Source: Patescibacteria group bacterium
Lineage (GTDB): Bacteria > Patescibacteriota > Patescibacteriia > 2-01-FULL-39-33
Direction of reading: 5' to 3'
DNA length: 32,000 nucleotides
Assembly: GCA_041662745.1 (NCBI GenBank)
Contig: JBAZRV010000002.1
Location: 90,001 to 122,000 of the forward strand
A model generated the notes under the pieces. The model ran no database searches. It was not told where the DNA came from and was given only the letters and a program-made list of their open reading frames with translations. Below are positions 414 through 27,174 of this stretch, in pieces. Position 1 is the stretch's first letter. Each line of letters opens with the position of its first letter. The position numbers and the translations under genes were made by a program.

Positions 414-965
414 ATGAAGAACCCTATCGCTGACAAAATACTGTTTTTACGGGTGAAAAACAAGGATCACGAGGCCTATGGCCGGTTTTATGATCTTTAT
501 GTTGAGCGGATTTATCGATTTGTCTATTTTAAGGTCAGTTCGGTTGATGATGCCAAAGACCTGACTTCCGAGGTGTTTCTGAAACTTTGGCAGTACATTA
601 AAGATGGCAAACCGATTAATAATTTGAATGCTTTGACTTACATGATCGCCCGCAATTGCGTGATAGATTTCTATCGCGCGCGCGCTCGCCGTGATGAGAA
701 TGAAGAAAAAGTCGCTGATGAGCATATCACTATCATTGATGATGAAGGCGACATCTTGATTCAGAAAATCAAAGACGCGGAGATGGCCGAGGTGCTGGCA
801 ACATTAAAAAAGCTCAAAGACGAATATCGCGAAGTTATAGTGCTAAGATATCTGGATGAATTGTCCATCAAAGAAATTTCTAAAATTTTAGATAAGTCAC
901 CCGGTTCGGTGCGCGTTTTGCTTTATCGGGCGCTCAATGCCATTAAAACGACGATTAAACAATAG
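414..965 (+). CDS. ECF-type RNA polymerase sigma factor (sigma-70 family, regions 2 and 4)
   Basis: 183 aa. Region 2-like FYDLYVERIYRFVYFKV...DAKDLTSEVFLKLW. Region 4 HTH-like YREVIVLRYLDELSIKEISKILDKSPGSVRVLLYRAL. Confidence 0.9.
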   Translation: MKNPIADKILFLRVKNKDHEAYGRFYDLYVERIYRFVYFKVSSVDDAKDLTSEVFLKLWQYIKDGKPINNLNALTYMIARNCVIDFYRARARRDENEEKVADEHITIIDDEGDILIQKIKDAEMAEVLATLKKLKDEYREVIVLRYLDELSIKEISKILDKSPGSVRVLLYRALNAIKTTIKQ

Positions 966-967: not shown

Positions 968-2152
968 GTGTCTCACAAAAATCTCATCAAACAACTAAAG
1001 AAAGTCAAAAACCTCGAAACCGTAGGACGGCCCGAGGCTTCTTGGACTTCCGACAGCCGTGAGATTTTGATGCATCAAATCAATCCGCAGAATAAGGCCG
1101 TGGAGTATTCTCCGATTAAATATTATGCCGAGTTTTTTTCTTCCACTCTGCAACAGAAATTTTTGCGTCCGGCCTTGGTCGCCTTAATGGTGGTCAGCAC
1201 TTTTTTCACTTATTCCGCCTTTACTTTGGCCGCTAAGGCGTCTTTGCCCGGCGAAGCTTTGTATCCCGTCAAGGTGTTTAGCGAGAAAATCCAGTTAGTC
1301 GCGGCTATCGGCAACGAGGCTAAGGTTAAGTTGCAATTGGATTTCATCTCCCGTCGCGGCGATGAATTGCAACAGATTGCCCGTCAGCCGGAAGATGCCA
1401 AAGCCAAATCCGCCAAAATTTCCCAAACAGTCAAGCAAATTACCGAAGATGTTAAGAACATTCAAGATAAAGTGGACAAAATCGCCGTTTCTTCTCCGGC
1501 CACTACTGTTATCAGTACTGCCAAGGTGGTTGATGATAAGACTTTAAAAGTGGAAAAAGACATAGTTGACGCTCATACTGTTTTGTCTACGGAAGTGAAG
1601 AAGGATGTGGCCAAGGATGTCAAAGAAGCGATTGCCACCACTGAAGAAGCCGGTACTAAGGCGCTTTTAATGATGGTGGCCAAATCCGAAGAAAAACAAG
1701 TCAAGGACAATAATCAAGCCGTTCCCACCAAGGAAATCGCCGCTCGCGTGCAAGAAAGAATCAAGAATACCGAGGCCGCGGTGGAAGTTGCCGCCGACGA
1801 GGTCAATAAAATCGCTACCGGTACGCCGGCCATTCTTAATTTGGTTGTTTTATCCAGTGATGGCACTAACAGAATCAGCGGTGTTTCCAGCACCGAAGCC
1901 AACACCACGACCACTTTGAAAGACGCAGTTCAAGATGTTACCGAAAAGCCCAAGCAAGCTCAGGAAGTGATTGAACAAGCCAAGCAAATGCTTGATAAGA
2001 ATGATGTCGTTTCCGCCTTACAGAAGATTGTAGAGAGCAAAAACATCGCCGCTGACGCCTTGGAAAAGGCGCCGCTTATCAACGATAAAATTCAAACCGA
2101 AATAACCAGTTCCACTGTTTCGGTTGTTACTGCGACCTCAACGGTCAAATAA
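968..2152 (+). CDS. putative anti-sigma factor / DUF5667-like single-pass membrane protein
   Basis: 394 aa. GTG start 3 nt after the sigma stop. One TM segment (LRPALVALMVVSTFFTYSAFTLAA) followed by the motif LPGEALYPVKVFSEKIQL and a long Lys/Glu/Ala-rich helical region. Position directly after an ECF sigma gene. Confidence 0.6.
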   Translation: MSHKNLIKQLKKVKNLETVGRPEASWTSDSREILMHQINPQNKAVEYSPIKYYAEFFSSTLQQKFLRPALVALMVVSTFFTYSAFTLAAKASLPGEALYPVKVFSEKIQLVAAIGNEAKVKLQLDFISRRGDELQQIARQPEDAKAKSAKISQTVKQITEDVKNIQDKVDKIAVSSPATTVISTAKVVDDKTLKVEKDIVDAHTVLSTEVKKDVAKDVKEAIATTEEAGTKALLMMVAKSEEKQVKDNNQAVPTKEIAARVQERIKNTEAAVEVAADEVNKIATGTPAILNLVVLSSDGTNRISGVSSTEANTTTTLKDAVQDVTEKPKQAQEVIEQAKQMLDKNDVVSALQKIVESKNIAADALEKAPLINDKIQTEITSSTVSVVTATSTVK

Positions 2153-2558
2153 TCAAATTAATAATTATTCGGAGTGTTGCGTCCAGAGCAGACATCCCGC
2201 TTTTAGCGAAGTCTCTGCCTTGTCCGCAATAAGCGTACAAGAACTTACAATTAAAACTTTAAGGGGTTTGAGGGCTAACTTTGCTGTCGCAAAGGTTTCG
2301 GCCTTCGGGATTCCATAATTTTATCGGCAAAGGTCGTTGAGGCAACCGCCCAGCTTATAAAATTATCGGTTTAATCCGTTGCTGGAAAAAGCTGCCTGTA
2401 GAGACGCCGCGATTGCGGTGGCTCCTAAGGCGCTTGTCGCCAGCGGAGACGCGACAATCTCGCGTCTTTACATCGGTTGCTGTTTTCAATTTCAACGGAT
2501 AATCCCCAGTGTTCCGCCTTGAACTGATAAGGTTTTAATCTAACTATTAACACAAACT
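2153..2558 (+). other. long non-coding spacer with multiple verified helices (candidate structured 5' leader or small RNA)
   Basis: No credible ORF. Helices: 2279-2284/2289-2294, 2315-2324/2357-2366, 2405-2410/2415-2420, 2447-2454/2460-2467, and long-range 2374-2381/2493-2500. Strand assignment is assumed. Confidence 0.3.
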
Positions 2559-5500
2559 ATGAAAAAGTTTTTAACTTATTCCGTAGTCGTAGCCACTATT
2601 GCTTGGTCTATGGGCATCAGCGCCGTTTTACCGGCCGCTGCCGCTTATACTCCGGCTGACGGCGATCTGATCAAGACCGCCAGTTATTCGGCTGTGTACT
2701 ATGTCACGGGTGGACAAAAATATCTTTTTGTCAACCGCGTAACTTATACGACCTGGTCAAATGCTGTTGGCGATGCCAATAACAATTTTGCCGGTTTAAA
2801 GGTTATTTCCCAATCTGAATTTGATGCTTTGCCCTTAGGCGGCAACATCACTGCCAGAGCTGGTGTCAGCTTAGTCAAGTTTGATAACTCGGGCATTGTC
2901 TATGCTGTCGCTCCGGGATCAAAATTGTGCAAGTTGGTTGATAGCGCCGCTCAGACCGCTTTATACGGTTCTGCCGCCCCTATTATCATCCAGTCTTCTT
3001 TTGAGGCTAACTATACTAAGGATGCCTCTTGCGACCTGACCGCTACTTCTAAGTATCCCGATGGCTCTTTAATCAAGACCTCCGGCGATGCTTCAGTTTA
3101 TTACATTGAAGGCGGAATGAAGCGCTTGGTTTCTGCTGATGGCTTTACTGCCAACAGTTTCAAATCCAGCTGGGTCAAGACCGTCAGCGATGTCAGTGGC
3201 TATACCACCGGCTCTGCTTTGACCATCAAGGAAGCCGCTGTTTCTAATGTGGTTTCCGGAGCTTCTGCCCCCGTTGTAACCTTAGGAACTTTAGGCGTGT
3301 CCTTATCCGCCAATAACCCGGTTTCAGCCACTATCGTGTCTGATACTGTTAACACCAGCCAGGCCTTAGTGCCGATGCTTGCCGTCAATTTGACTGCTTC
3401 ATCTGCCGGCGATGTCAAGGTTACCGGCATGCAGTTCACTCGCACCGGTATCTCCAATGACACTGATGTCTCCGTTTCCTATCTATATGAAGGATCCAAG
3501 AAATTGGCTGAGGGCGGTTCAATTTCTTCTAAGGTTTTAACCTTTAATGCCTCTAACGGTATTATTACGGTTCCGGCCGGCCAAACCAAGACTGTTTGGT
3601 TGAAGATTGACACAACCATCGCTACCGGCGCTGGCAAGAGCATTGGTTTCAATTTGACCGGTGTTACTTCTAACGCCACTGCTATTTCCGGCACTCCTTT
3701 GACTGGAAATTTGATGAGCACTGCTTCTGTTACTGATTTGGGTTATGTGGTTATCAGCTCCGGCAATGTGCCGACTGCCGCTTCCACTGTAAACTCCAAT
3801 GAGACTGATTTTGAAGCCTATAAAGTCACTTTGACTGCTACCGATCAGGATATGCAGTTAGAGGGCTTGAGATTGACCGAAATCGGTTCAATCGGTAAGG
3901 ATGATTTGACAAACATCAAATTGGTTTATGGCGGAACTACTTTGGCCACTGCCGCTTTTGACGACAATATGGAATTGTATTTTGACTTATCAGCCTCTCC
4001 CTTCCAGATCGCGAAGGGCAATTCCAAGACCTTGTCTTTGAGAGTTGACATTTCCAAGGGTTCAACTCGAACCTTTAAGTTCTCCATCCAGTATGCTTCT
4101 GATATTGTGACTAAGGATTTGGGCTATAATGTTTATACCCAAGCCTTTAAGAGTGGAGCTGTCACTTGGAGCGCTGTTACCAGCGCCGCCAGCACCTATG
4201 TCTATACCATTAATTCTGGCACTTTGACTTTAGCTAAGGATGCCAGTTCACCTTCCGGCACCGTCGCTGGTAATGGTACTAATGTTAAGTTGGCAACCTA
4301 CAAGATTACAGCTACCGGTGAAGATATGAAAGTTAAGAGCATGGATCTTAAGGTCAATACCACTTCCGGCCAAGAAGGCGGTTTGGACAATGCCAAGATT
4401 TATTTTGATGGCGTCCAGGTCGGTTCGACTAAGGATTTGACCACTGAAGCCACTAATGTAAACTTCACTTTCGGCTCCAGTTTCATTGTCCCGGCCGGAA
4501 CTTCTAAATTAGTTGATATCTATGCTGATTTGAAGACCTCCACTGGAACAGCTATTGTTTCTGGTGCTGCCACAGTTACTCTGTCTTCAAGCGAAACCCA
4601 AGGCGTTCTATCTTTGACTGCTGGAACTTTAGCAGCGGTTGATGGCAGCGCTTTGACTATTGGCGCTGTTTCAACCATTACTTTGGCTGAGTACACCGCC
4701 TATGGCGATCAGACTCTACCTTCTCCTTCATCTCAAGCTAAGATGGGATCATTTTCCGTCGCCGCTTCTGCCAGTGAAGGTGTAGTTGTCGAAAATATCT
4801 ACATCAGCGGAGCCACTTCCGGCGAACTTGCCAACATGAATTTGAAGGTTGGCTCAACGATTATCGGCTCTAAAGCGACTTTCTCTGCTACCGATGCTTC
4901 CTCCACTATTTCTATCAGTGGCGGCAAGTTGACTTTAGCCAAGGGCGAAACCAAAGTTGTTGATATTTATGCCGATATCACTTCCGGTATCACTAATACC
5001 ACTGGTATCACTTTGGGCGTAAATTGCGACGGTACCACTCCTGACACCAATACTGCCGCTACCGGCGCTTTCAAGGGCTTGCAGACTATTGTTATTGGTG
5101 CTGGTTCTTTGACTTTGGATACCAACGGAGCTAAACCGGATTCAGCTGTTATTGTGGCTGGTGCAACCACAGCGGTTAGCGCTTTCACAATGTTGGCCGC
5201 CAATGATTCATTCACTATTAACACCCTGACTGTTACTTCTACTGTTGCCGCTTCCGATCGCTCAGTGGGCGCAGTCATCTTGGAATATAAGAATGAAGCT
5301 GGTGAAACCAAGACCGCAACCGGTTATTTAAGCAGCGGTTCGGTTATCTTCAACAACCTGTCTATCTGGATTCCGAAGAGTGTCGGCGCAACCGTAACCA
5401 TCAAGGCTATGGTGGCTGACGCTACCGGCGCCAAGTCTGGTGATATCGTTCGCTTGAACTTAAGCGCTTCTGATGGCACTTCCACTGTTTTTGCCGCTAC

Positions 5501-6128
5501 CAGCAAAGCGACCGGTTCAGCTGAATATGATTACACTGGTGCTAATGGTGTTACTGGCAATCCGATGATTGTCAGAAAGACCAAGCCGACCGTCTCTTTG
5601 ATTTCCTTGCCGACCTCTGTTTTAGCTGATGGCACTCAGACCATCTCTAAATTCAGTATCGCTGCTGATGCAGCCGGTGATGTTACTTGGAGAAAGATGG
5701 GTTTTGTCTATTCAACCAGCGCCATCGCCGTTGATGTAACTGATCTTAGTATCTATCTGTATAAAGATGGCGATTCCACTAAGTTGAATGCTACCGGTTT
5801 GAGTTTAAGCCGAACTTCAGCTAAAACTATCAGCTTTGTGGCTGATACCGAACAAACCATCACCAAGGGTACTTCCCAGACTTATGTCTTGAAGGCTGAT
5901 TTGACCGGCACTTCCGCTGGTACTTCCTTCACCACTAAGATCTCCGGTACTTCGGCTACTGCTGGAACTTCTACCACTTACGCATTATTGCTCACAGAAA
6001 CAATGTTCTGGTGGTCTGACCGTTCCGGCGCTGCCGATGATGGCGTTCATACCGCCACTTCTGATGACTGGTGCGATTCCAGCTATATTAAGACTTTACC
6101 GACCGATTCTCAAACCTTATCCAGATAG
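2559..6128 (+). CDS. giant secreted surface protein (S-layer/adhesin-like) with repeated beta-sandwich-like modules
   Basis: 1189 aa. Signal peptide MKKFLTYSVVVATIAWSMGISAVLPAAAA. N-terminal ~120-aa module shared with the C-terminus of 9341..10552. At least 6 divergent ~100-aa repeats (recurring ...PAG/KGxxKxVxIxAD...). Strongly Thr/Ser/Ala/Gly/Val-rich. Trp-rich C-terminal tail FWWSDRSG...DDWCDSSYIKTLP. Confidence 0.8.
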   Translation: MKKFLTYSVVVATIAWSMGISAVLPAAAAYTPADGDLIKTASYSAVYYVTGGQKYLFVNRVTYTTWSNAVGDANNNFAGLKVISQSEFDALPLGGNITARAGVSLVKFDNSGIVYAVAPGSKLCKLVDSAAQTALYGSAAPIIIQSSFEANYTKDASCDLTATSKYPDGSLIKTSGDASVYYIEGGMKRLVSADGFTANSFKSSWVKTVSDVSGYTTGSALTIKEAAVSNVVSGASAPVVTLGTLGVSLSANNPVSATIVSDTVNTSQALVPMLAVNLTASSAGDVKVTGMQFTRTGISNDTDVSVSYLYEGSKKLAEGGSISSKVLTFNASNGIITVPAGQTKTVWLKIDTTIATGAGKSIGFNLTGVTSNATAISGTPLTGNLMSTASVTDLGYVVISSGNVPTAASTVNSNETDFEAYKVTLTATDQDMQLEGLRLTEIGSIGKDDLTNIKLVYGGTTLATAAFDDNMELYFDLSASPFQIAKGNSKTLSLRVDISKGSTRTFKFSIQYASDIVTKDLGYNVYTQAFKSGAVTWSAVTSAASTYVYTINSGTLTLAKDASSPSGTVAGNGTNVKLATYKITATGEDMKVKSMDLKVNTTSGQEGGLDNAKIYFDGVQVGSTKDLTTEATNVNFTFGSSFIVPAGTSKLVDIYADLKTSTGTAIVSGAATVTLSSSETQGVLSLTAGTLAAVDGSALTIGAVSTITLAEYTAYGDQTLPSPSSQAKMGSFSVAASASEGVVVENIYISGATSGELANMNLKVGSTIIGSKATFSATDASSTISISGGKLTLAKGETKVVDIYADITSGITNTTGITLGVNCDGTTPDTNTAATGAFKGLQTIVIGAGSLTLDTNGAKPDSAVIVAGATTAVSAFTMLAANDSFTINTLTVTSTVAASDRSVGAVILEYKNEAGETKTATGYLSSGSVIFNNLSIWIPKSVGATVTIKAMVADATGAKSGDIVRLNLSASDGTSTVFAATSKATGSAEYDYTGANGVTGNPMIVRKTKPTVSLISLPTSVLADGTQTISKFSIAADAAGDVTWRKMGFVYSTSAIAVDVTDLSIYLYKDGDSTKLNATGLSLSRTSAKTISFVADTEQTITKGTSQTYVLKADLTGTSAGTSFTTKISGTSATAGTSTTYALLLTETMFWWSDRSGAADDGVHTATSDDWCDSSYIKTLPTDSQTLSR

Positions 6129-6176
6129 TTTCTATCTGTTAAGTTAAGGGTAAAAGTCAGGTAAATCTGATATAAA

Positions 6177-6213
6177 AGACCGTCCCGACGCAAGTTGGGG
6201 CGGTCTTGTTTTC
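6177..6213 (+). terminator. rho-independent terminator
   Basis: 10-bp stem agaccgtccc/ggggcggtct (one G-U), 10-nt loop, then tgttttc. Lies 49 nt after the stop of the giant gene. Confidence 0.75.
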
Positions 6214-6234
6214 GCCATAATTTTTTGCTATAAT
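6206..6234 (+). promoter_or_regulatory. candidate sigma70-type promoter with extended -10
   Basis: TTGTTT (6206-6211), 17-nt spacer, TGcTATAAT (6226-6234). The extended -10 nonamer is identical to the one at 157-165. Confidence 0.45.
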
Positions 6235-6262
6235 AAAGACGTTATTATTAATTTGATTTCGT

Positions 6263-7027
6263 ATGTTCAACTCAAAAACCATCATCAAAACTTTAGCCGT
6301 TGTTTTAGTTATTTTAGTTTTAGCCGGCTGTTTTTATGTCATTGCCAATTATCAGGAACTGTTCGGTCCCAAGATTGAAGGCCAAATCGGACAGCAGGTC
6401 TATAATCCGGAAGAAATCAAGAAGGATTTTAGCAATCGGGAAAGAAAGTCAGCTTCCGGCGTCGTGCCGCCGCAGGAAATCACCGATCGTTACAATGATC
6501 TGATCGCCAAATCCCGCCAGGCAATCGCCGACAATAAGCCGTCTGATCCGGCCAATCCCGATTTATCCTGGGATTACGTGATCATCGCCAACAGTCAGGC
6601 GATTTTGGGCCAATATGATGAAGCGGAGCAATCGTATTTGCAAGCCGCTCAGAAATTTCCCGATAATTACCGCGCCCACATGAATTTGGGTGATCTGTAT
6701 ATTTTAATGGAATTGCCCCAGAGCGCGGCCGTTAAATTCGCCGAGGCAGTCAATCTTTATCCTAAAGACGGCATGATTTACACCAAACTGGCTGATTTGT
6801 ATTTTAAATATTCCACCGCGCCGGAAAAAGCCCAGGATATTTACGAATTGGGCTGGAAAAACGCCGATGATAAACGATTGGTTTTGAATTATTACATCAT
6901 CTATTTGCAAACTCAGAAGAAAGACTTAGTGAAGTTGGAGGAAATCAAGCGCGAATACGAAAAGATTATCAGCGGCAAAGTGGAACAGCAGAAACAGAAG
7001 ATTGAGCAGACGATTGACGTTCAATAG
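6263..7027 (+). CDS. membrane-anchored TPR-repeat protein
   Basis: 254 aa. N-terminal TM (TLAVVLVILVLAGCFYVIANY). TPR-like repeats (AILGQYDEAEQSYLQAAQKFPDNYRAHMNLGDLYILMELPQSAAVKFAEAVNLYPKD). Confidence 0.7.
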   Translation: MFNSKTIIKTLAVVLVILVLAGCFYVIANYQELFGPKIEGQIGQQVYNPEEIKKDFSNRERKSASGVVPPQEITDRYNDLIAKSRQAIADNKPSDPANPDLSWDYVIIANSQAILGQYDEAEQSYLQAAQKFPDNYRAHMNLGDLYILMELPQSAAVKFAEAVNLYPKDGMIYTKLADLYFKYSTAPEKAQDIYELGWKNADDKRLVLNYYIIYLQTQKKDLVKLEEIKREYEKIISGKVEQQKQKIEQTIDVQ

Positions 7028-7028
7028 T

Positions 7029-9212
7029 ATGGACTGGCAAAAAAATATCAAGAATATCTTGCTTTGGGGAACACTTGCGGCCTTATGGACCCCGCTGATT
7101 TTTTATCGCCAGGCGATTTTCCCCTATATTTCTCCCAAAAATTTCTTTTTCCGCTTTATTGTGGCAGTTCTTTCTGCATTGCTGATTGGTTATATTTTAC
7201 AGAGGAAGAAGTTGGTTTTTTCAAGCCATAAGATATATTTTTCTTTTTTAGTTTTTCTGTTGGTTAATCTTATTGCCGCGATTTTCGCCGTAAATCCGCA
7301 ATTGGCTTTCTTCGGCAGTTTTGAGCGCATGGGAGGCTGGTTCAATTTATTCTTTTTGAGCCTGTTTTTTCTAATTGTTATTAATGTATTTGAAACTAAG
7401 GATGATTGGCTTAAATTACTGCGGTCATCAGTGATCTGTTCGGCGATATTATCCATTTATTCTTTGATTGTCCGCTTCGGCCATAACATTCCGGTCGGCT
7501 GGCCCAAAAACGGCGCCACCTTGGGAAATATTGATTTTTTGGGCGCTTACCTGATGCTTAGCGTATTCTTGGGCCTGTTAGCGTTTGTTTTGGAAAAAAA
7601 CAATAAATGGCGGATGGCTTATGGAGCCATTATAGCCATAAATCTTATAGTTTTGCTTCTGACCGCCGCGCGAGCCGGAATATTGGGCCTATTTTTCGGC
7701 TTGTTTATTTTCGCGATTTTTATTTTTATCAAGGCTGGTAAAAAAATCAAATACAGCCTTGCCGGCTTGTTAGTGATATTAATTTTATTCGGCGGCATCG
7801 CTTATCAGCAAAAGGATTCCGCTTGGGTTAGATCATTGCCATTTTTATATCGCTTCACTCAGATTTCCCTTAACGATGCCAGCACAAAAGACCGTTTGCT
7901 GGTTTGGTATGTTTCTTGGCAAGCCTTTGGAGATCGGCCGATCATCGGTTACGGATCGGAGAATGCCATTTACGGCTTGAATAAGTATTATAACCCCAGG
8001 GTGACGGAAATGTGGTTTGATCGGGCGCATAATTTTATTTTTGATATTTTGCTTGCCAGTGGTTTGATCGGCTTATTGTTTTATTTGTCAATTTTCGGCT
8101 TGGCTTTTTGGCTGATATTGAAGAATTTAAACCGTAATTATTATCTTGGGGCTATTTTATTTAGTTCTCTGGCCGGATATCTTGCCAGTAATCTATTTAA
8201 TTTCGATACCATCAGCTCCTGGCTACCTGTAATATTAATCTTGGCTTTTATCGGGCATTGGACAAAAAAAGAGAATAGTGAGAATAATCTCCCCCGATTG
8301 CTCGTTAAATTTGATTTTATTACGGCCGGCACGCTGATTTTTATTCTTGCTTTAGTCAGTTATTTTACGGTCTTGAAGCCGGCTTATGCCGGCTATTTCG
8401 GTTCGTATGGAAGTGCTTATGCCGATCAATACCCGGATAAAGCGATAGTTTTTATGGAACGAGCAATAAGCTTGAATACTTATGGCAATCGAGAGTTGGC
8501 TATGCAGTTGTCGGAGTTTGATCGGCAATATAATGAATCGTCGGAACTTGACTCTGTTAAAAAGAAGGAATATTTTGACATATCCGAAAAAGCCTTGTTG
8601 GATTATCTGAAATCTGACCCGAATAATATCCAACCCAAGATTTTTTTGGCCCTGCTCTATCAAAGTTTTGCCAAGGAAAATTCTTTTTATATTAGTGAAT
8701 CAATTCGGCTTATGGAGGGCAACATCAATAATTCACCTCAGAGAATCGAGATTTATAATATTTTAGCTCAGGGATATTATTTGAGGGGTGATTATGATCG
8801 GGCGGTTAAAAATCTAAAAGTTTCCTTATCAATCAATAATTGGGATGAAGACCAATATTTGAATTTGATCAATATCCTGTCGCAACGGAATGATTTGGCA
8901 GAAATGAATAAGTATATTAATGAGTTTTTGACTAATATCAAAAGTATTTCTCCCGACGGCTATAAGCGCTTGGGGCAGTATTATTTCAATGTCGGCAATG
9001 TCGATGAAGCTGAGCGCGTTGTCCGTGATTTGGCCATTCCTGCCAATCCTGACTATTTGCCGACCAGAATCGCCCTGGCCTCTATTTATGAATCTCGCGG
9101 CGAGTATGATCGGGCTATAAATTATACCCAAGAAATGATCAATATCCATCCAGAATGGGCAGAAACCCTAAATAATTATATTAAATATTTGAACGACAAG
9201 AAAAATAGGTAA
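7029..9212 (+). CDS. Wzy_C (O-antigen ligase-like) polytopic membrane protein with C-terminal TPR-like domain
   Basis: The ATG at 7029 is preferred over the TTG at 7002 because the upstream stop gives TAGtATG. Many TM helices. Signature DRLLVWYVSWQAFGDRPIIGYGSEN...WFDRAHNFIFD. The C-terminal ~270 aa are soluble with TPR-like repeats (YNILAQGYYLRGDYDRAVKNLKVSL, ASIYESRGEYDRAINYTQEMINIHPE). Confidence 0.75.
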   Translation: MDWQKNIKNILLWGTLAALWTPLIFYRQAIFPYISPKNFFFRFIVAVLSALLIGYILQRKKLVFSSHKIYFSFLVFLLVNLIAAIFAVNPQLAFFGSFERMGGWFNLFFLSLFFLIVINVFETKDDWLKLLRSSVICSAILSIYSLIVRFGHNIPVGWPKNGATLGNIDFLGAYLMLSVFLGLLAFVLEKNNKWRMAYGAIIAINLIVLLLTAARAGILGLFFGLFIFAIFIFIKAGKKIKYSLAGLLVILILFGGIAYQQKDSAWVRSLPFLYRFTQISLNDASTKDRLLVWYVSWQAFGDRPIIGYGSENAIYGLNKYYNPRVTEMWFDRAHNFIFDILLASGLIGLLFYLSIFGLAFWLILKNLNRNYYLGAILFSSLAGYLASNLFNFDTISSWLPVILILAFIGHWTKKENSENNLPRLLVKFDFITAGTLIFILALVSYFTVLKPAYAGYFGSYGSAYADQYPDKAIVFMERAISLNTYGNRELAMQLSEFDRQYNESSELDSVKKKEYFDISEKALLDYLKSDPNNIQPKIFLALLYQSFAKENSFYISESIRLMEGNINNSPQRIEIYNILAQGYYLRGDYDRAVKNLKVSLSINNWDEDQYLNLINILSQRNDLAEMNKYINEFLTNIKSISPDGYKRLGQYYFNVGNVDEAERVVRDLAIPANPDYLPTRIALASIYESRGEYDRAINYTQEMINIHPEWAETLNNYIKYLNDKKNR

Positions 9213-9340
9213 AATTAGGCAAATTAATAATTGTAAGTTATCCACAGCCGTACTTTTCTGTTCTTGATTATTATGTTATACTTAAATCAAGCTTTTTAGA
9301 TAAATATCCGCGTTATAGCGGTATAAAAAATTAAAAAAAT

Positions 9341-10552
9341 ATGGAAGGTAACAAATTCGGCCGGTTTTTATTTCTGGCCAAGACTTCAGTCTTAATGGTT
9401 GCGGTTATTTTTGCCGTAGTTATTTCGGCTTCAGTTGCTTTGGCAGCTGCTCCGGTAGCTCCGACAGGCGCTTATGTGTCAACTACCTCGACAAACTCAA
9501 TGGTTGTAACTTGGGTTTGGGGCAGTGGAACAGAAACATATTTTACGGTTGATCAATCAACTGACGGGTTAACTTACACTCATGTTTCATCGTCCATTGC
9601 GACCACAACTCTGAGTTATACTTTTGCTGGTTTATCTCCAGATACTTTGTACTATTTTAGAGTAGCTTCAGCCAGCAGTACTCATACGGCGACTTCATCT
9701 TACTCTACCACTTCAGCGGCCTATACTTTAGCCACGGCTCCAACTTCATCTAACGCTGTTGTGCAAAGTCCAAGTGTTATTAATTTTACTTGGACAGGCG
9801 ATGCCACAGCATATTATGCGGAGAATATTACTGCCGGGACAAATTCTGGCTGGGTAACTGACACGAATTTCAGTTCGACCGGCTTATCATGCAATACAAC
9901 TTATACCTTTTATGTTAAGGGCAGAAATGGCGATTTAGTTGCAACTGCATATTCCGATACTCAGTTGGCCACAATTAGTTGCGGCAGTGGTGGCGAAGAC
10001 CCCTCTCCTGCGACTCCGGCCACACCTGCCGTACCCGCCACTCCGGCCACGCCGGCTGTGCCGGGCGAAACCCCAGCCATTCCCGCTGTTCCTGCTACGC
10101 CAGCCATACCCGCATCCATTACTGTTAGTAATGTCCCTGGTTCAATTATAAAAGTCAACGCCAGCGACCGTCCGGCTGTTTATTATGTCATTGACGGCAA
10201 GAAATACTTGTTTGTCAATCGCGCCACTTATACGACCTGGAGCTCCGACGCCGGCGATAGCGCCAACAATTTCTCCACCCTTACCATGGTTTCTCAAGCG
10301 GAATTTGATGCTATTCCTACCGGTGGCAATCTAATCGCCAAACCCGGCAGTTTGATCAAGTTTGATAACAGTCCGATAATTTATGCCGTCGCCACCGGAG
10401 GCAAGCTGTATCAACTGGCCGATTCAGCCGCTCAGACCGCGCTTTACGGCACGGCTGTTCCGGCGGTAATCCAGACGGGCTTCAGAGACGGCTATTATGA
10501 CCATGGCAACGCTGTCGGCACTCTGACCGCCAGTTCGCAGAAACCGGAATAA
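9341..10552 (+). CDS. secreted protein: 2x fibronectin type III-like domains, Pro-Ala-Thr linker, C-terminal module shared with the giant surface protein
   Basis: 403 aa. N-terminal signal/TM. FN3-like segments (PTGAYVSTTSTNSMVVTW...LSPDTLYYFRV; VINFTWTGDATAYYAE...CNTTYTFYVKGRN). Linker PSPATPATPAVPATPATPAVPGETPAIPAVPATPAIPA. The C-terminal ~120 aa are about 60% identical to aa 45-153 of the 1189-aa protein by hand alignment. Confidence 0.8.
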   Translation: MEGNKFGRFLFLAKTSVLMVAVIFAVVISASVALAAAPVAPTGAYVSTTSTNSMVVTWVWGSGTETYFTVDQSTDGLTYTHVSSSIATTTLSYTFAGLSPDTLYYFRVASASSTHTATSSYSTTSAAYTLATAPTSSNAVVQSPSVINFTWTGDATAYYAENITAGTNSGWVTDTNFSSTGLSCNTTYTFYVKGRNGDLVATAYSDTQLATISCGSGGEDPSPATPATPAVPATPATPAVPGETPAIPAVPATPAIPASITVSNVPGSIIKVNASDRPAVYYVIDGKKYLFVNRATYTTWSSDAGDSANNFSTLTMVSQAEFDAIPTGGNLIAKPGSLIKFDNSPIIYAVATGGKLYQLADSAAQTALYGTAVPAVIQTGFRDGYYDHGNAVGTLTASSQKPE

Positions 10553-12757: not shown

Positions 12758-12774
12758 ATTTAGAATAAAAATAT

Positions 12775-12800
12775 TAAAGACGCAACCTAATGCGTCTTTA
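12775..12800 (+). other. perfect 10-bp hairpin between the sigma gene and the putative anti-sigma gene
   Basis: taaagacgca / tgcgtcttta with a 6-nt loop. No clear U-tract after it. Confidence 0.6.
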
Positions 12801-12818
12801 AATCGTATTAACAACCAT

Positions 12819-16295: not shown

Positions 16296-16298
16296 CTT

Positions 16299-19582: not shown

Positions 19583-21898
19583 ATGAATCTAAAGCAATTT
19601 TTGGCGCCGGCATTAAAAGTTGTAATCTGGGCCTGTTTGGCGGTGGTGCTGTTTTCCGCTTTATACGTCAGTTCCGCTCTGTTTTTCCCCTTTATCACCT
19701 CCAAGACTTTTGCTTTTCAAATTGCCGTAGAGGTAATGTTTTTGGCCTTTTTGTTGCTTTGTTTGGTTGATGACAAATACCATATCCGGCTTAATGTCAC
19801 CGTGCTTTTGCTCCTGCTTTATCTGATAATCTTAACTATCGCCTCGGCTTTTTCCGGCAACGACCTTTATCATTCTTTCTGGTCCAACAACGAGCGTTGC
19901 GACGGCATTCTATTGTTAATTCATTTATTTTTATTTTGCGCCGTCTTGTCGGGTTTTTTCCGCTCTGTCAAAGAATGGCTGTATCTTTTTGACCTGTTCT
20001 TGTTAGCTTCCTTTGCCGTCGCTTTGGTGGCGTTGGATCAATATTTGGCTTTGACCTTCGTCGGCTCTTGGAAGGATCACTTTTTACCCTCGTCAAACGG
20101 CGCGCGTTTGGCCGGAACCATCGGCAATTCCGGTTATGTCGGCGGTTATATGGTGTTTGGGATTTTTATCGCTTTATTCATGGCCTTGAAACGATCGCAG
20201 TGGTGGGCCAAGAGTTTGTATGTCTTAGCGATTATTTTGGAATTGTTCATCGCTGTCCAAACCTTCACTCGCGGCGCTTACCTGGCTTTGGGGCTGGGCG
20301 GATTCATCACCTTGGTTTATCTGGGTTATTTCTATTACAATAAATTGCGGTTGAAGATCGCAACCACGGGTTTAGTCTTAATCGTTTCATTATTTATCGT
20401 TGTCATCTTCGGTTGCGGCAGCGGCAAGATTTTAACCCCGGGTTTTGGGTTTTCTTGGGAGCAAGGATTCCATAAAACCGCCGTCTGCAATAATTTCGCT
20501 TATGCCAATCCGGTTTTAAAAAGAATCAATTCCATTTCCTTGACCGACGTTACCAGCAATAATCGCATCGTGGCTTGGACTATCGGTTTGAAGGGTATCG
20601 CCGCCAGGCCGATCCTGGGTTACGGCCAAGAGAATTTTTATCAAGTTTTTGACAAATATTATACGACTAAAAGTTCCGAACAGTGGTTTGATCGTTGCCA
20701 TAATATGTTTTGCGATCGCGCCGTAACCGGCGGAATTCCGGGTTTGCTGTCCTATCTGGCCGTTCTGTTATTACCCTTCTTCTTTTTGTGGAAATATTAT
20801 TTTAAGGAATACGGCAATAACAAAGAACAGGGGGATGCGGACAGGGATTACAAGAAGTATTTGACGCCGGTTATTTTCAGTATCTTGATTATCGCTTATC
20901 TGATCCAGAATTTTTTCATTTTTGAGGCCTTGGCGATTTACATCCCGCTGATAATCGTGTTGAGTTTCGTCGGCCAGTACAGCCGAAGTTGGAATTTTGA
21001 TTTTTTAGAAAATCATAATTTTAAAGTGGCTCTGGCCGTAATCGTCGGTATTTTGTTTCTGCCGGCGCTTTGGTTTTTCAGCTTGAAACCGTTTTACGCC
21101 AATGCCGATTTTATCAAAGCCCTGACCAGGCCTTGGCCGACCCTGCAAGATAAGATTGATTCCTTTGAAGAAGTTATCGGTCGCGGCACTTTGGGCAACC
21201 AAGAGTATCGCAAGCATTACTTTGATTTTTATGGCAACGAACTGATGAGTTATTTGTCCCAGGCAGCCAACCGCACATCGGACAAAGACCGGCAAATGGC
21301 CAATTGGTCCGATTTGATGGAAAACCAATTCTTAAATCAGTTGAAAGAAAATCCCCATAGCGTTACCAATTGGCTGTTGCTTGAAAGATTTTATAATATT
21401 TCTTATGTTTTCAATGTCAATCGCCTGCAGAAGGCTATCGGCATTGCCGATCAGATGATCGCTCTAAGTCCGGGCAGACCTCAGATATATTACGAAGCCG
21501 GCTCCGCTAATTATTATCTGGGCTGTTTCCTGCTGACTGAAAAAAATAACCCCGTGGAAGCCAAAAAGCAATATCAGCAAGCTTTGACCAGATTTTGGCA
21601 GGGCGCCAAGATCAATAATCAGGTCGGCAACGGCTTTGATCAATTCAGTGATTTTGTCTTATCCATTAAAAATAACGCCCAGATTGCCGATACGTTCGCT
21701 CAAGCCTTGGCTACGGGACCGCTAGACGATATAGCGCCCTTAGAATTAATCAAGCAATTGGCCGAATGGTCCAAGACGCCGGATGATCAGGCAATTATGG
21801 CGCAAAGGGAGGAGAAGCTTAAAACCATGGCCGTTTGGCTAATCGCTTCCCGAGCCGGCAATCCCGAATTAAAACAATACCTGGAAACAATCAAATAA
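19583..21898 (+). CDS. Wzy_C (O-antigen ligase-like) polytopic membrane protein with helical-repeat C-terminal domain (paralogue of 7029..9212)
   Basis: 771 aa. Many TMs. NRIVAWTIGLKGIAARPILGYGQENF...WFDRCHNMFCD aligns with the signature in 7029..9212. The C-terminal ~280 aa are soluble and helical. Confidence 0.75.
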   Translation: MNLKQFLAPALKVVIWACLAVVLFSALYVSSALFFPFITSKTFAFQIAVEVMFLAFLLLCLVDDKYHIRLNVTVLLLLLYLIILTIASAFSGNDLYHSFWSNNERCDGILLLIHLFLFCAVLSGFFRSVKEWLYLFDLFLLASFAVALVALDQYLALTFVGSWKDHFLPSSNGARLAGTIGNSGYVGGYMVFGIFIALFMALKRSQWWAKSLYVLAIILELFIAVQTFTRGAYLALGLGGFITLVYLGYFYYNKLRLKIATTGLVLIVSLFIVVIFGCGSGKILTPGFGFSWEQGFHKTAVCNNFAYANPVLKRINSISLTDVTSNNRIVAWTIGLKGIAARPILGYGQENFYQVFDKYYTTKSSEQWFDRCHNMFCDRAVTGGIPGLLSYLAVLLLPFFFLWKYYFKEYGNNKEQGDADRDYKKYLTPVIFSILIIAYLIQNFFIFEALAIYIPLIIVLSFVGQYSRSWNFDFLENHNFKVALAVIVGILFLPALWFFSLKPFYANADFIKALTRPWPTLQDKIDSFEEVIGRGTLGNQEYRKHYFDFYGNELMSYLSQAANRTSDKDRQMANWSDLMENQFLNQLKENPHSVTNWLLLERFYNISYVFNVNRLQKAIGIADQMIALSPGRPQIYYEAGSANYYLGCFLLTEKNNPVEAKKQYQQALTRFWQGAKINNQVGNGFDQFSDFVLSIKNNAQIADTFAQALATGPLDDIAPLELIKQLAEWSKTPDDQAIMAQREEKLKTMAVWLIASRAGNPELKQYLETIK

Positions 21899-21947: not shown

Positions 21948-23096
21948 TTATTTCCGATACGCTTCAATGGTTTTTTCTATCATTTCTCTTAGGTTGAATT
22001 CTTTTTTTACTTTGATCAGCCCCGCTTCGCCGAATTGCTTTCTTAATTTTTCATCGGCCAACAGCTTTATTTTTTCGGCTAGCCTTTCCGGCGATCGCGG
22101 TTCAATCAGATAACCGGTAACGCCATTGTCAATTATTTCGGGAATGCCGCCGACCTTAGCGGCTATGACGGGCAAGCCGGCCGACATGGCCTCCAGTATG
22201 AAGTAGGGCAGGCCTTCTTTGGTTGACGACATCACGGCCAAGTCAAAAGCTTTCAAGTATCTGGCGGCTTCTTTTTTGTTGCCGGCCAGAATAATGTTAG
22301 CTTCTAATTTTAATCGTTTGATCTGTTGTTCTAATTCCTTCCTTAATTCTCCTTCGCCGATGATTATCAGCTTGTAATCGGCAACCGGCAGGAGACTGAC
22401 AGCGTCAATTAAATAATTCAATCCTTTAGCCGGGTAAAAGTTGGCAATAGTTCCGATTATCAGCTTATCATTATTTTTAGTAACAGTCGCCGAGTCGTCG
22501 GTTTTTAATAATTCGCCCAAAGCCCCTTCTTTAGCCAAAAAATAATCAGCCGGCAGATCTATGCCGTTACGAACGATTATTAATTTTTCAGCCGGAGCGA
22601 TTTTTGCTTTAAGGCCGGCTTGCCGATCAAAATCAGACAGGCAAATGAAATAATCCTTAAAACCGGCAAATGATTTTTCTATCAAAAAATAAAACAGTTT
22701 AGTCAGGGGATTGAGGCTTTCATTAAAAACCCAGCCGTGTACCGTATAAACCACTTTAGCGCGATGGCGGGCTAATTTGGCGGCCAAGGATCCCACCGCT
22801 CCGGCTTTACTGCTGTTTAGATGGACAACATCGGGCCGTTCTTGTTCAATCAGTGTTTTTATCTCTTTGACTGCCAACAAATCATTAATCAAACTGATCC
22901 TTCTCACCAATCTCTTAAGGGGAAGGAATTTTATATTTTCTTCTTGCAATCTTGCTGTTAATTCCCCGACAGACTCTTCCCCGCCGGCCACCGTAACGGC
23001 TATGTTATTATTTTTGGCTAAATTTACAGCAAAAGTATGGACATATTTTTGCGCTCCGCCCCAGGATGATTGAGTGATGATAAATAACGCTTTCAT
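21948..23096 (-). CDS. GT4-family glycosyltransferase
   Basis: 382 aa. N-terminal SWGGAQKYV motif. C-terminal EGLPYFILEAMSAGLPVIAAKVGGIPE (EX7E-type). Confidence 0.9.
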   Translation of the reverse strand: MKALFIITQSSWGGAQKYVHTFAVNLAKNNNIAVTVAGGEESVGELTARLQEENIKFLPLKRLVRRISLINDLLAVKEIKTLIEQERPDVVHLNSSKAGAVGSLAAKLARHRAKVVYTVHGWVFNESLNPLTKLFYFLIEKSFAGFKDYFICLSDFDRQAGLKAKIAPAEKLIIVRNGIDLPADYFLAKEGALGELLKTDDSATVTKNNDKLIIGTIANFYPAKGLNYLIDAVSLLPVADYKLIIIGEGELRKELEQQIKRLKLEANIILAGNKKEAARYLKAFDLAVMSSTKEGLPYFILEAMSAGLPVIAAKVGGIPEIIDNGVTGYLIEPRSPERLAEKIKLLADEKLRKQFGEAGLIKVKKEFNLREMIEKTIEAYRK

Positions 23097-23107
23097 AAGT
23101 TGTCGTC

Positions 23108-23164
23108 TTGATTTTTTTAGCTTATTTCTGATATAATATTAAGGTATTAATTGATAATTTACAA
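23108..23164. promoter_or_regulatory. interdigitated divergent promoter pair, copy A
   Basis: Plus strand: TTGATT (23108-23113), N18, TGaTATAAT (23129-23137). Minus strand: TTGTAA (23164-23159), N17, TAATAT (23141-23136). The two -10 elements overlap. Confidence 0.45.
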
Positions 23165-23171
23165 GACCGCC

Positions 23172-23252
23172 ATGAACAAATTAATCGGTTTTATCGGCCA
23201 GGGTTGGATCGGCAAAAGTATAGACATATTTTTGCGCTCCGCCCCAGGATGA
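23172..23252 (+). pseudogene. remnant 5' end of the dehydrogenase-like gene created by the duplication (26-codon ORF)
   Basis: MNKLIGFIGQGWIGK is identical to the start of 23355..24206. It then reads into the duplicated antisense GT4 sequence and stops. Confidence 0.7.
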
Positions 23253-23279
23253 TTGAGTGATGATAAATAACGCTTTCAT
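23181..23279 (-). pseudogene. remnant 5' end of the GT4 gene created by the duplication (32-codon ORF)
   Basis: MKALFIITQSSWGGAQKYV is identical to the start of 21948..23096. It then diverges and stops. Confidence 0.7.
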
Positions 23280-23290
23280 AAGTCGTCGTC

Positions 23291-23347
23291 TTGATTTTTT
23301 TAGCTTATTTTTGATATAATATTAAGGTATTGATTGATAATTTACAA
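23291..23347. promoter_or_regulatory. interdigitated divergent promoter pair, copy B
   Basis: Same elements as copy A shifted by 183 nt. The substitutions fall in the spacers, not in the hexamers. Confidence 0.45.
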
Positions 23348-23354
23348 GACCACT

Positions 23355-24206: not shown

Positions 24207-24209
24207 TTT

Positions 24210-24243
24210 GCTATGTAACCTGTTACGTAGCATGCTACGTAAC
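24210..24243. repeat. three GCTAyGTAAC half-sites (direct, inverted, direct) at 12-bp spacing, including a perfect 22-bp palindrome
   Basis: gctatgtaac (24210-24219), gttacgtagc (24222-24231), gctacgtaac (24234-24243). 24222-24243 equals its own reverse complement. The element sits in the 47-nt gap between two operon genes. Confidence 0.8.
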
Positions 24244-24253
24244 AATTTATCAC

Positions 24254-25441: not shown

Positions 25442-25452
25442 ACTCTAAATTT

Positions 25453-27156: not shown

Positions 27157-27174
27157 CGCTAATCGTTATTTGCT

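Follow-up and report, generated by a model that had tools for sequence, protein, structure and literature searches.

What does a membrane enzyme of the O-antigen ligase type do downstream of a giant surface protein gene, in a tiny bacterium of the CPR, which reportedly have no outer membrane? The window analyzed here, a stretch of 32,000 nt from a Buchananbacteria-like Patescibacteria genome, raises this question. A first-pass annotation had answered it with a candidate surface-protein O-glycosylation or assembly system, in which the enzyme acts on flanking Ser/Thr-rich secreted proteins. Its open reading frames, domains and junctions were all recovered by ORF check, Pfam and NCBIfam, and its interpretation is partly supported, with both the synteny and the catalytic residues conserved. 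By analogy with known systems, we give a probability of roughly one half to the reading that the cassette is a dedicated surface-layer-protein O-oligosaccharyltransferase (O-OTase) system. Four features had escaped that annotation: the homology between the giant's N-terminus and the FN3 protein, the second Wzy_C-TPR paralogue, the glycan-synthesis cluster and the RNA leader. The features of the window are the following.

414..965, + strand: ECF-type sigma factor (Pfam Sigma70_r2/r4_2/ECF; NCBIfam sigma70-ECF, 96.6 bits, cut-off 42.9)
968..2152, + strand: DUF5667 membrane protein (Pfam DUF5667, E 3e-8)
2255..2558, + strand: conserved, structured RNA leader preceding the giant gene (folding energy, covariation)
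2559..6128, + strand: giant secreted surface protein, 1189 aa (signal peptide; AF2 all-beta body)
2640..3053, + strand: N-terminal ~135-aa surface-anchor module of the giant (homology to the FN3 protein)
3291..5978, + strand: six tandem diverged ~150-aa beta-sandwich repeats of the giant (segment profiles, AF2 secondary structure)
5997..6125, + strand: conserved C-terminal element of the giant (family consensus)
6263..7027, + strand: small N-terminally membrane-anchored TPR protein in a WsaA-like position (Pfam TPR_2 and others)
7029..8264, + strand: WaaL-fold Wzy_C membrane core, 12 helices (Pfam Wzy_C, AF2, Foldseek)
8313..8417, + strand: thirteenth transmembrane helix of Wzy_C-TPR (AF2 helix 429-463, hydropathy)
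8421..9212, + strand: TPR superhelix of ~260 aa, joined to the Wzy_C core (Pfam TPR families)
9341..10552, + strand: secreted or anchored FN3 protein (Pfam fn3, E 1.4e-9)
9995..10117, + strand: Pro-Ala-Thr linker of the FN3 protein, aa 219-259 (sequence)
10124..10540, + strand: C-terminal anchor module of the FN3 protein (homology to the giant's N-terminus)
19583..21898, + strand: second Wzy_C-TPR paralogue (Pfam Wzy_C, E 1.8e-16, plus TPR_9)
21948..31415, mixed strands, one GT4 on the - strand: glycan-synthesis cluster (Pfam, NCBIfam)

The giant protein carries a signal peptide, is indeed Thr/Ser-rich as first described (S+T 26%), and has a pI of 4.9 and 4 Cys. Its ORF matches no Pfam or NCBIfam model. 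The AF2 model (pLDDT 84.9) has an all-beta body, and its Foldseek matches are confined to generic chains of the Ig-like type, PrgB among them. The original label of repeat protein holds at the profile level and not otherwise: the profile of each of the six beta-sandwich repeats (aa 245-1140) recovers the other five (i-E 1e-5 to 1e-21; 0.006-0.4 for a few pairs). The C-terminal element (F-x-W-S-D ... D-W ... L-P-x-D-x-x-T-L-S), in which W1152, D1154 and D1183 are invariant in the family consensus, follows a disordered S/T-rich stretch, and aa 1132-1146 have a pLDDT below 50. Homologues with a source name are 1100-1500 aa long and come from named Patescibacteria lineages in every case. In size class and lineages, the two features compared, the family matches predicted S-layer proteins of 1131-1274 aa from Nealson-, Doudna-, Kaiser-, Kazan- and Parcubacteria (bioRxiv 10.1101/2024.05.28.596244, supplementary table). 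These candidates are large, possess a signal peptide, Ig-like domains and anchoring segments, and were modelled as hexagonal lattices, in a study that makes no mention of glycosylation or Wzy_C-TPR neighbours (bioRxiv 10.1101/2024.05.28.596244). CPR cells have been reported to possess an S-layer but to be without an outer membrane (bioRxiv 10.1101/2020.05.14.094862), and we regard the giant as a candidate S-layer-type surface protein.

Residues 24-168 of the giant share 54% identity (E 8e-44) with the C-terminus of the FN3 protein (aa 256-403). This anchor module has no Pfam match, and 2416 cluster representatives contain it, in every case either right behind a signal peptide or at the very C-terminal end, with GH9, PKD, FN3, deacetylase and InlB repeats as partner domains; it constitutes a large unannotated domain family. 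In distant giant homologues it is replaced by PG_binding_1. Of the two FN3 domains originally assigned to the FN3 protein, one passes Pfam and the other is a weak internal match only (E 0.029), while the Pro-Ala-Thr linker is present as described. Equivalent neighbours occur in related loci, and PT-linker proteins account for 8 of 388 ORFs downstream of the giant versus 0 of 465 upstream.

Turning to the enzyme, its Wzy_C domain (Pfam E 5.6e-20, 72 bits, cut-off 31.7, aa 201-353) and the fusion of this core to C-terminal TPR repeats, which match Pfam TPR families, are both confirmed. The TAG-t-ATG junction with the small TPR gene is exact, and the start at 7029 is favoured over an upstream TTG at 7002 since orthologues use the equivalent ATG. 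The AF2 model (pLDDT 92.9, pTM 0.89) resembles the twelve-helix fold of WaaL 7TPG (TM 0.64 over 427 columns), no other membrane-protein fold appears in the top 50 Foldseek results, and a profile search of the PDB likewise found 7TPG (E 1.6e-11), aligning R215, R289 and H334 with R191, R265 and H313. This triad is invariant in 55 sequences, so that the Arg/Arg/His pattern found in both WaaL and PglL, which had been proposed as a point to check, is kept; the corresponding residues have been equated as R215/R288/H338 in E. coli WaaL and R224/R298/H349 in PglL (PMC3643930). Furthermore, E99, R100, G166, N167, G307, G309, D331, N388 and D393 on the outer face are invariant or nearly so in sequences that are 22-30% identical.

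Given its closest solved structure and the database label "O-antigen ligase family protein," the enzyme could be read as a genuine WaaL joining O-antigen to lipid A-core. We consider this next to inconceivable, since an outer membrane is reportedly missing in Patescibacteria (bioRxiv 10.1101/2020.05.14.094862; PMC12102498), whereas the acceptor of WaaL is the lipid A-core of diderm bacteria. Pfam/NCBIfam domain annotation found no lpx or waa genes within the window, and WaaL has no thirteenth helix, no TPR domain and no conserved neighbourhood with a surface-protein gene.

The thirteenth helix corresponds to a hydropathy peak at 431-449 that is preceded by a K/R-rich loop. Based on the known WaaL fold, with 12 transmembrane helices and both termini inside, and on the positive-inside pattern, this helix should position the TPR domain on the extracellular side. 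The domain has both sequence and fold matches in the PDB to the TPR domains of OGT and SPINDLY, and the small TPR protein, which is membrane-anchored as annotated through one N-terminal hydrophobic helix (aa 10-28), is homologous to it. One could speculate that the pair has a non-catalytic role, in which two extracellular TPR modules act as chaperones or docking sites for the giant while it is exported and assembled into a lattice, and the Wzy_C core is mainly a membrane platform. TPR domains make protein-protein contacts, the two modules are paralogous and the cassette lacks glycan genes, all of which suits such a role; however, the conservation of the triad and the outer-face residues at such low identity would be unexpected for a mere scaffold, making it very unlikely.

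The enzyme had also been likened to the eukaryotic TMTC family. TMTC1-4 and Pseudomonas TfpW are likewise polytopic membrane glycosyltransferases with lumenal or periplasmic TPRs and protein substrates (PMC7801869; bioRxiv 10.1101/2020.04.19.049825), and to this extent the comparison stands. It is nevertheless a loose analogy, because they belong to a different fold class (GT-C) and use polyprenyl monophosphate sugar donors, whereas the enzyme described here is Wzy_C/WaaL-like. The closest precedent is instead the S-layer O-glycosylation of Bacillaceae, which makes the original idea less novel than assumed. WsfB of Paenibacillus alvei consists of Wzy_C plus a C-terminal TPR, and for WsaB of Geobacillus stearothermophilus NRS 2004/3a a separate TPR protein, WsaA, is encoded just upstream, in a cluster that was mapped together with the S-layer gene (PMC2943079). 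Judged by domain make-up and gene layout, the likeness lies in a host without an outer membrane, in a Wzy_C enzyme with TPRs that are either fused (WsfB) or on a separate small protein (WsaA), and in an enzyme encoded with the S-layer gene. On the contrary, the Patescibacteria cassette has both separate and fused TPR modules, carries no glycan-synthesis genes, and encodes a surface protein of an unrelated family that is Patescibacteria-specific among source-named homologues.

Conservation of the gene order in relatives, on which the proposal was expected to depend, turned out to be strong and directional. Of the 43 species-level genomes in which the flank extends for 8 kb or more, 40 carry a Wzy_C-TPR gene downstream of the giant on the same strand (median gap about 0.9 kb), while such a gene lies upstream in 0 of 61 genomes (Fisher p = 1.2e-25). 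Of the 80 loci, 55 contain a homologue of the small TPR gene, which almost always sits between the giant and Wzy_C. The same cassette was recovered in independent database gene calls, and it is conserved across many Patescibacteria lineages in the classes ABY1 and Paceibacteria. The linkage is kept whether the giant carries the novel module or PG_binding_1, which associates the enzyme with the giant's conserved body and not with its anchor. O-OTase genes mostly adjoin their target gene in the same orientation (PMC3643930), and PglL and PilO(TfpO) of Proteobacteria share with the present enzyme this arrangement and a Wzy_C core with the same triad. PglL prefers low-complexity Ala/Pro/Ser stretches akin to the Pro-Ala-Thr linker of the FN3 protein. 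The putative targets here are not pilins, however, and the enzyme has an added TPR superhelix and helix 13.

In the O-OTase reading, the giant would leave the cell by Sec, be fixed at the wall through its N-terminal anchor module and display its six beta-sandwich domains. The small TPR protein would be membrane-anchored and extracellular, and helix 13 would set the enzyme's own TPR superhelix on the outer face near the catalytic loop. By analogy with WsaA/WsaB, WsfB and PglL, the donor would be a glycan that is built beforehand on undecaprenyl diphosphate and then flipped to the outer face, where R215 and R289 would bind the diphosphate and H334 would serve as the base. The TPR modules would recruit the polypeptide, and the glycan would pass as a single block to hydroxyl groups of Ser/Thr (or Tyr) in the emerging giant and probably of neighbouring wall-anchored proteins with Pro-Ala-Thr linkers; an en bloc transfer of lipid-linked glycan to S-layer protein hydroxyls is likewise the reaction proposed for WsfB/WsaB (PMC2943079). 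The Ser+Thr content of the giant and the downstream enrichment of PT-linker proteins, both sequence features, would favour this choice of acceptors. If true, Patescibacteria share a type of S-layer sugar coating known from some Gram-positive bacteria.

Several observations count against this assignment. The Wzy_C domain is common to ligases, O-OTases and polymerases and does not tell them apart; Pfam detected neither PglL_A nor other PglL-specific motifs in the enzyme, whose conserved C-terminal motif is N-L-F-x-F-D and differs from the PglL_B-type H-x3-E-x-P of PglL (PMC3643930). Genomes carry several Wzy_C-TPR paralogues, the neighbour is absent in ~7% of genomes with enough flank, and in one genome (L041) an enzyme of the second paralogue's type adjoins the giant. 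Moreover, the conserved cassette in the 80 loci contains no glycan-synthesis, flippase or chain-length genes, and neither an initiating phosphoglycosyltransferase nor a flippase was identified within the window. The glycan cluster, a possible donor supply, adjoins the second paralogue, which branches apart from the giant-linked copies. It encodes a GT4 (- strand), a truncated-looking UDP-sugar dehydrogenase, a further GT4, a PMT_2-type GT-C, a polyprenyl-P-sugar-synthase-like GT2 and a methyltransferase-GT4-B12/radical-SAM fusion.

The main rival is a reading that we hold to be rather unlikely: the enzyme and the small TPR protein may ligate or polymerize an undecaprenyl-linked wall glycopolymer (secondary wall polymer or capsule-like) that the surface layer needs for assembly or attachment, the giant being a partner instead of an acceptor. 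The breadth of the Wzy_C superfamily, whose sole solved relative here is a glycolipid ligase, the missing PglL-specific motif and the paralogue beside the glycan cluster would all fit, as would the nearest named NCBIfam model, an exosortase-associated putative ligase scoring well below its cut-off, and TPR modules also typify polysaccharide export scaffolds, according to a reference cited in PMC2943079. However, the linkage persists with any giant anchor, including PG_binding_1, a direct peptidoglycan binder, and the cassette is devoid of glycan-synthesis, flippase and chain-length genes. In addition, the tight, same-strand and often translationally coupled position after the structural gene is that of known O-OTase-target pairs (PMC3643930, PMC2943079).

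The window also holds an alternative route for protein O-glycosylation. The PMT_2 protein (E 3.5e-25) adjoins the GT2 (25453-27897), and this pair mirrors the Ppm/Pmt route by which Actinobacteria O-mannosylate Pro/Thr-rich secreted proteins; the FN3 protein has exactly this type of linker. The neighbourhood might then reflect nothing beyond co-expression of envelope genes, with PMT_2 glycosylating surface proteins from GT2-made polyprenyl-phosphate sugars and the Wzy_C-TPR enzyme in an unrelated envelope role. We find this quite unlikely, as the pair lies 15 kb off and outside the conserved cassette, and loose co-expression fails to explain a p of ~1e-25 and the strict polarity of the Wzy_C-TPR gene.

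As for regulation, an ECF sigma gene precedes the giant in 15 of the 17 genomes with a novel-anchor giant and in 0 PG_binding_1-type genomes of the same survey. The start of the DUF5667 gene is coupled to the stop of the sigma gene and the two are co-conserved, the DUF5667 protein being a probable anti-sigma partner. This pair, together with the structured 5′ leader, may control expression of the giant cassette in the Buchananbacteria-like lineage. The leader (~300 nt) has no Rfam match and folds with an MFE of -111 kcal/mol (z = -5.0). Alignment of seven genomes gave 79 consensus pairs, 19 of them with compensatory changes, a level of covariation reached by 0 of 500 shuffles, and pairing amounted to 95%, compared to 38-49% when the partners were slid.

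The ORF map recomputed here agreed exactly with that of the first-pass annotation, and domain scans confirmed its ECF sigma factor (414-965) and DUF5667 protein (968-2152), together with the succession of a TPR protein (6263-7027), a Wzy_C protein with C-terminal TPRs (7029-9212) and an FN3 protein (9341-10552) behind the 1189-aa secreted surface protein, hereafter the giant. The TAG-t-ATG junction proposed between the TPR and Wzy_C genes is real, and the giant is indeed rich in Ser and Thr (Ser+Thr = 26%). Of the two FN3 domains that had been claimed, one passes Pfam and the other has weak support. Database entries with 100% identity exist for the enzyme and for the giant, both from a "Patescibacteria group bacterium" MAG, and their closest relatives belong to Candidatus Buchananbacteria. 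Scans of the window for promoters (29 predicted vs 21.6 in shuffles) and terminators (13 vs 12.5) performed no better than on shuffled sequence, and a hairpin at 6199-6216 is suggestive only. The shared terminal domain, the second paralogue and the glycan cluster listed here had been missed in the first pass.

Features of the locus (window positions)
about 2255-2558 (+): structured RNA leader, ~300 nt, also upstream of the giant in the homologous loci L001, L002, L017, L085, L086 and L087
2559-6128 (+): the giant
2640-3053 and 10124-10540: unannotated ~135-aa domain, N-terminal in the giant and C-terminal in the FN3 protein
5997-6125: conserved C-terminal element of the giant (aa 1147-1189), F-x-W-S-D ... 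D-W ... L-P-x-D-x-x-T-L-S, family-wide, after a disordered S/T-rich stretch
6263-7027: small membrane-anchored TPR protein
7029-9212: Wzy_C-TPR enzyme
9341-10552 (+): FN3 protein with a Pro-Ala-Thr (PT) linker
19583-21898: second Wzy_C-TPR paralogue of 771 aa, branching separately from the copies linked to the giant
21948-31415: glycan-synthesis cluster, after the second paralogue, ~10 kb downstream of the three-gene cassette

We interpret the cassette (the giant, small TPR and Wzy_C-TPR genes) as a dedicated surface-layer-protein O-oligosaccharyltransferase (O-OTase) module, with a probability of about one half; the chemistry, namely the transfer of glycan to the giant by the enzyme, is the step that we infer. 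Conservation was assessed over giant homologues at 80 species-level genome loci, drawn from Buchanan-, Kuenen-, Komeili-, Yonath-, Kaiser-, Nomura-, Lloydbacteria and other Paceibacteria. The locus search was seeded with a 17-sequence giant alignment, a 41-sequence alignment being too diverse to seed, and all ORFs of the 80 loci were scored by profiles made from the window's proteins. In 40 of the 43 loci with at least 8 kb of downstream sequence, a Wzy_C-TPR gene follows the giant on its strand (median gap ~0.9 kb); such a gene lies upstream in none of the 61 loci with at least 8 kb on that side (Fisher p = 1.2e-25). The suspected synteny of Wzy_C-TPR and giant surface-protein genes is thus conserved; a few genomes truly lack the enzyme beside the giant. 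By neighbour clustering, 55/80 loci carry a gene homologous to that of the small membrane-anchored TPR protein, nearly always between the other two genes, and the same order is also seen in independent database gene calls. The surroundings are housekeeping genes, with FtsK and RecA upstream and L10 and L7/L12 downstream, and in the source lineage the cassette adjoins SecE-NusG-L11-L1. The ECF sigma/DUF5667 pair occurs only with the lineage bearing the novel anchor domain (15/17 vs 0). In a neighbour-joining tree, indicative only, the giant-linked enzymes cluster by lineage, L041 aside, which is consistent with vertical inheritance. At locus L041 (14476-16680) the giant-adjacent enzyme is of the second-paralogue type, with no small TPR gene between, an arrangement that suggests that Wzy_C-TPR paralogues can replace one another. 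In several genomes (L009, L016, L018, L019) a second Wzy_C-TPR copy stands in tandem directly after the first.

The module reading is supported by two further features of this association. First, it tracks the conserved body of the giant and not the anchor type. Second, the downstream side repeatedly carries small wall-anchored proteins that have (Pro-Ala-Thr)n linkers (8/388 ORFs vs 0/465 upstream). They are counterparts of the FN3 protein with its Pro-Ala-Thr linker, and candidate extra acceptors. These PT-linker proteins are secreted, ~290-300 aa long, and found in L022, L027, L035, L039, L057, L078, L079 and L081; in the cluster representative (L057 9339-10256) a peptidoglycan-binding-like domain is added at the C-terminus. 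Just after the cassette, an HD-domain gene (SpoT/RelA hydrolase-like, 234 aa; 10657-11361, - strand) is conserved in the closest relatives L001 and L002, and Ice_binding (PF11999) proteins stand just downstream of the cassette in L002 (14048-15319) and L085 (14275-15522), that of L002 also bearing the novel anchor domain.

The Wzy_C (PF04932) score of the enzyme, 72.1 bits, exceeds the cut-off of 31.7 (E 5.6e-20). Its AF2 model, built from 55 sequences (pLDDT 92.9, pTM 0.89), consists of a 12-helix core, a long 13th helix (aa 429-463) and a TPR superhelix of ~260 aa, the core having the WaaL-like membrane fold with a large outer-face loop. WaaL (7TPG) was the only membrane-protein match among the top 50 in Foldseek, at TM 0.64 over 427 columns, and the fused TPR part (aa 465-727) resembles the TPR domains of OGT and SPINDLY. 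A single-sequence search of the membrane core against the PDB gave no match, and a core profile of 15 sequences found 7TPG at E 1.6e-11. The catalytic Arg/Arg/His pattern is kept: R215, R289 and H334, invariant in 55 sequences, align to R191, R265 and H313 of CmWaaL (7TPG), and their equivalents are functional residues in E. coli WaaL (R215/R288/H338) and in PglL (R224/R298/H349) (PMC3643930). The small TPR protein, which has one N-terminal TM helix and is homologous to the fused TPR domain, should face outward. The termini of WaaL are cytoplasmic in the 7TPG structure and the loop preceding helix 13 of the enzyme is K/R-rich; for these reasons the fused TPR domain should, on the model, also lie outside, on the face that bears the conserved residues.

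Monoderm bacteria already offer examples of Wzy_C and TPR encoded together with an S-layer gene (PMC2943079). In Paenibacillus alvei, WsfB carries a C-terminal TPR, whereas Geobacillus stearothermophilus WsaB has none and a 168-aa TPR protein, WsaA, is encoded directly upstream (PMC2943079). The TPR of these Bacillaceae S-layer O-OTases is thus fused or separate, and both forms are present here, as the small TPR protein (6263-7027) and as aa 465-727 of the enzyme (7029-9212). O-OTase genes also typically adjoin their target in the same orientation (PMC3643930), an adjacency shared by the Wzy_C-TPR gene downstream of the giant on the same strand in 40/43 genomes. It is because the cassette repeats both the WsfB/WsaA-WsaB arrangement and this co-oriented O-OTase-target logic, with an unrelated surface protein, that we favour the module reading. 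The Bacillaceae systems are encoded with the S-layer structural gene; the enzyme here adjoins the giant, a putative S-layer protein unrelated to theirs. Differences are also evident. The Bacillaceae clusters include glycan-synthesis genes, whereas the conserved cassette holds no glycosyltransferase, other glycan-synthesis, initiating or flippase genes. PglL has an H-x3-E-x-P C-terminal motif, in place of which the enzyme has a conserved N-L-F-x-F-D, and PglL_A was not among its Pfam matches at E <= 0.01. The system is a lineage-wide addition to the known Wzy_C-TPR/S-layer scheme and not categorically new. Our literature searches found no paper tying CPR (Patescibacteria) surface proteins to Wzy_C-TPR enzymes, and searches on Patescibacteria with O-antigen ligase or WaaL returned nothing relevant.

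Other assignments of the enzyme were weighed. The premise of the first-pass annotation, that no lipid A acceptor is available, is supported at phylum level since Patescibacteria are reported to have no outer membrane (bioRxiv 10.1101/2020.05.14.094862; PMC12102498), in the former case by cryo-TEM; within the 32-kb window there are no lpx or waa genes. A bona fide WaaL was rejected on the host envelope and gene context, and the earlier comparison with the eukaryotic TMTC family, whose fold class is different, was dropped as a claim of membership. As for an O-antigen or capsule polymerase, neither the window nor the conserved cassette has a Wzx or Wzz homologue. The main alternative, which we consider unlikely, is that the enzyme ligates or polymerises a wall glycopolymer that the surface layer needs. 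Several points count against a dedicated O-OTase: Wzy_C cannot tell ligase, OTase and polymerase apart, glycan-synthesis genes are absent from the conserved cassette, there are several Wzy_C-TPR paralogues per genome, and a GT2/PMT_2 pair in the vicinity is another possible source of O-glycosylation.

The giant has the traits expected of an S-layer protein, being secreted, acidic (pI 4.9), almost free of Cys, rich in hydroxy amino acids, multi-domain and equipped with a probable wall-anchoring module. It has no Pfam or NCBIfam match even at E = 10. In its AlphaFold model (41 homologues as input, pLDDT 84.9) the signal peptide is followed by an N-terminal module of alpha/beta type (aa ~30-230) and then by a long body of all-beta structure; the chain closes with a short, conserved C-terminal element, which could act as a signal for sorting, docking or modification. 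Each ~150-aa segment profile of the body finds the other five, and it is because the body consists of six diverged tandem beta-sandwich copies that family lengths are held at 1100-1250 aa despite 25-30% identity. Foldseek returned generic Ig-like chains only, e.g. the PrgB stalk, with very low TM-scores, and the giant is therefore assignable to no specific S-layer or adhesin family. Cryo-TEM of CPR cells has revealed an S-layer and no outer membrane (bioRxiv 10.1101/2020.05.14.094862), the composition of the S-layer seen in Patescibacteria by cryo-EM being so far a matter of prediction. A preprint from 2024 describes Patescibacteria S-layer candidates of 1131-1274 aa, modelled as hexagonal lattices (bioRxiv 10.1101/2024.05.28.596244), of the same lineages and the same size as the giant family, and Kuroda et al. 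report that, in three Paceibacteria, some of the most highly expressed genes encode secreted proteins with PG-binding domains (PMC10936435). In a search with a Kaiserbacteria member of the giant family, the S-layer accessions of the preprint were not among the matches listed. The giant is hence a well-motivated candidate S-layer protein, linked to the published candidates by size and lineage.

The N-terminal ~135 aa of the giant and the C-terminus of the FN3 protein share 54% identity (E 8e-44). An exhaustive profile search found this domain in 2416 cluster representatives, in host proteins of 166-1787 aa, always at the extreme C-terminus or directly behind the signal peptide. Its partners are GH9 cellulases, PKD, FN3, polysaccharide deacetylase and InlB-type repeats, and it sometimes adjoins PG_binding_1; no Pfam or NCBIfam family matches it, even at E = 10. 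A large Paceibacteria branch of the giants (>686 proteins, annotated "peptidoglycan-binding protein") carries PG_binding_1 in the N-terminal slot. Because it is always terminal and fused to varied domains, the sequence comparisons indicate that the domain is probably a modular wall or surface anchor, swappable with PG_binding_1, and naming it would improve annotation of the CPR surface proteome.

The leader of the giant gene is conserved among seven genomes, between whose giants identity has fallen to ~37%. It folds far better than its shuffles (z = -5.0), and 19 of its 79 consensus pairs show compensatory changes across the seven genomes, a covariation reached by 0/500 shuffles; in a slide control the leader was 95% paired vs 38-49% when slid. 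No Rfam family matches it, and with its covariation support it is a candidate new cis-acting RNA. S-layer mRNAs classically have long stabilising 5′ leaders, and a stabilising 5′ UTR would therefore fit a highly expressed structural gene; a role as cis-regulator is equally plausible.

Taken across many Patescibacteria lineages, the three-gene cassette may, we tentatively propose, encode the apparatus by which CPR cells assemble a glycosylated S-layer. If true, the CPR radiation would have its first defined protein-glycosylation system, complete with an anchor-domain family and, in one lineage, a structured mRNA leader of its own; the glycan coat would be the surface by which CPR episymbionts meet their hosts. 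A large part of bacterial diversity consists of Patescibacteria, which live mostly attached to other cells and touch the host with their envelope, and a cassette kept across many of their lineages is a concrete candidate for an S-layer protein with its modifying enzyme. If active, the enzyme would represent an O-oligosaccharyltransferase lineage with a new acceptor specificity, relevant to bioconjugate work.

The glycan-synthesis cluster contains two GT4 enzymes, a UDP-sugar dehydrogenase, a PMT_2-type GT-C, a polyprenyl-P-sugar-synthase-like GT2 and a methyltransferase-GT4-B12/radical-SAM fusion. The PMT_2-type GT-C (567 aa) adjoins the polyprenyl-phosphate-sugar-synthase-like GT2 (240 aa) at 25453-27897, and this Ppm/Pmt-like pair could on its own serve in O-glycosylation of secreted proteins; that this nearby pair is the O-glycosylation route, in place of the Wzy_C-TPR enzyme, seems to us very improbable. 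The 1183-aa fusion (27864-31415), an unusual architecture of methyltransferase, GT4 and B12-binding radical-SAM domain, suggests from its domains a methylated or otherwise modified sugar. The UDP-glucose/GDP-mannose dehydrogenase ORF (23334-24206, 290 aa) may be a truncated gene or pseudogene, since it begins at profile position ~70 and has no C-terminal domain. A tRNA gene (19346-19417, - strand) precedes the second Wzy_C-TPR paralogue, after which the cluster follows. Between the cassette and this region, the block at 11508-18132, with a second ECF sigma (12188-12757) between small unannotated ORFs and then an HlyD-type adaptor, a MacB-type ABC exporter and two DUF5666-like proteins, is kept in the relative L001.
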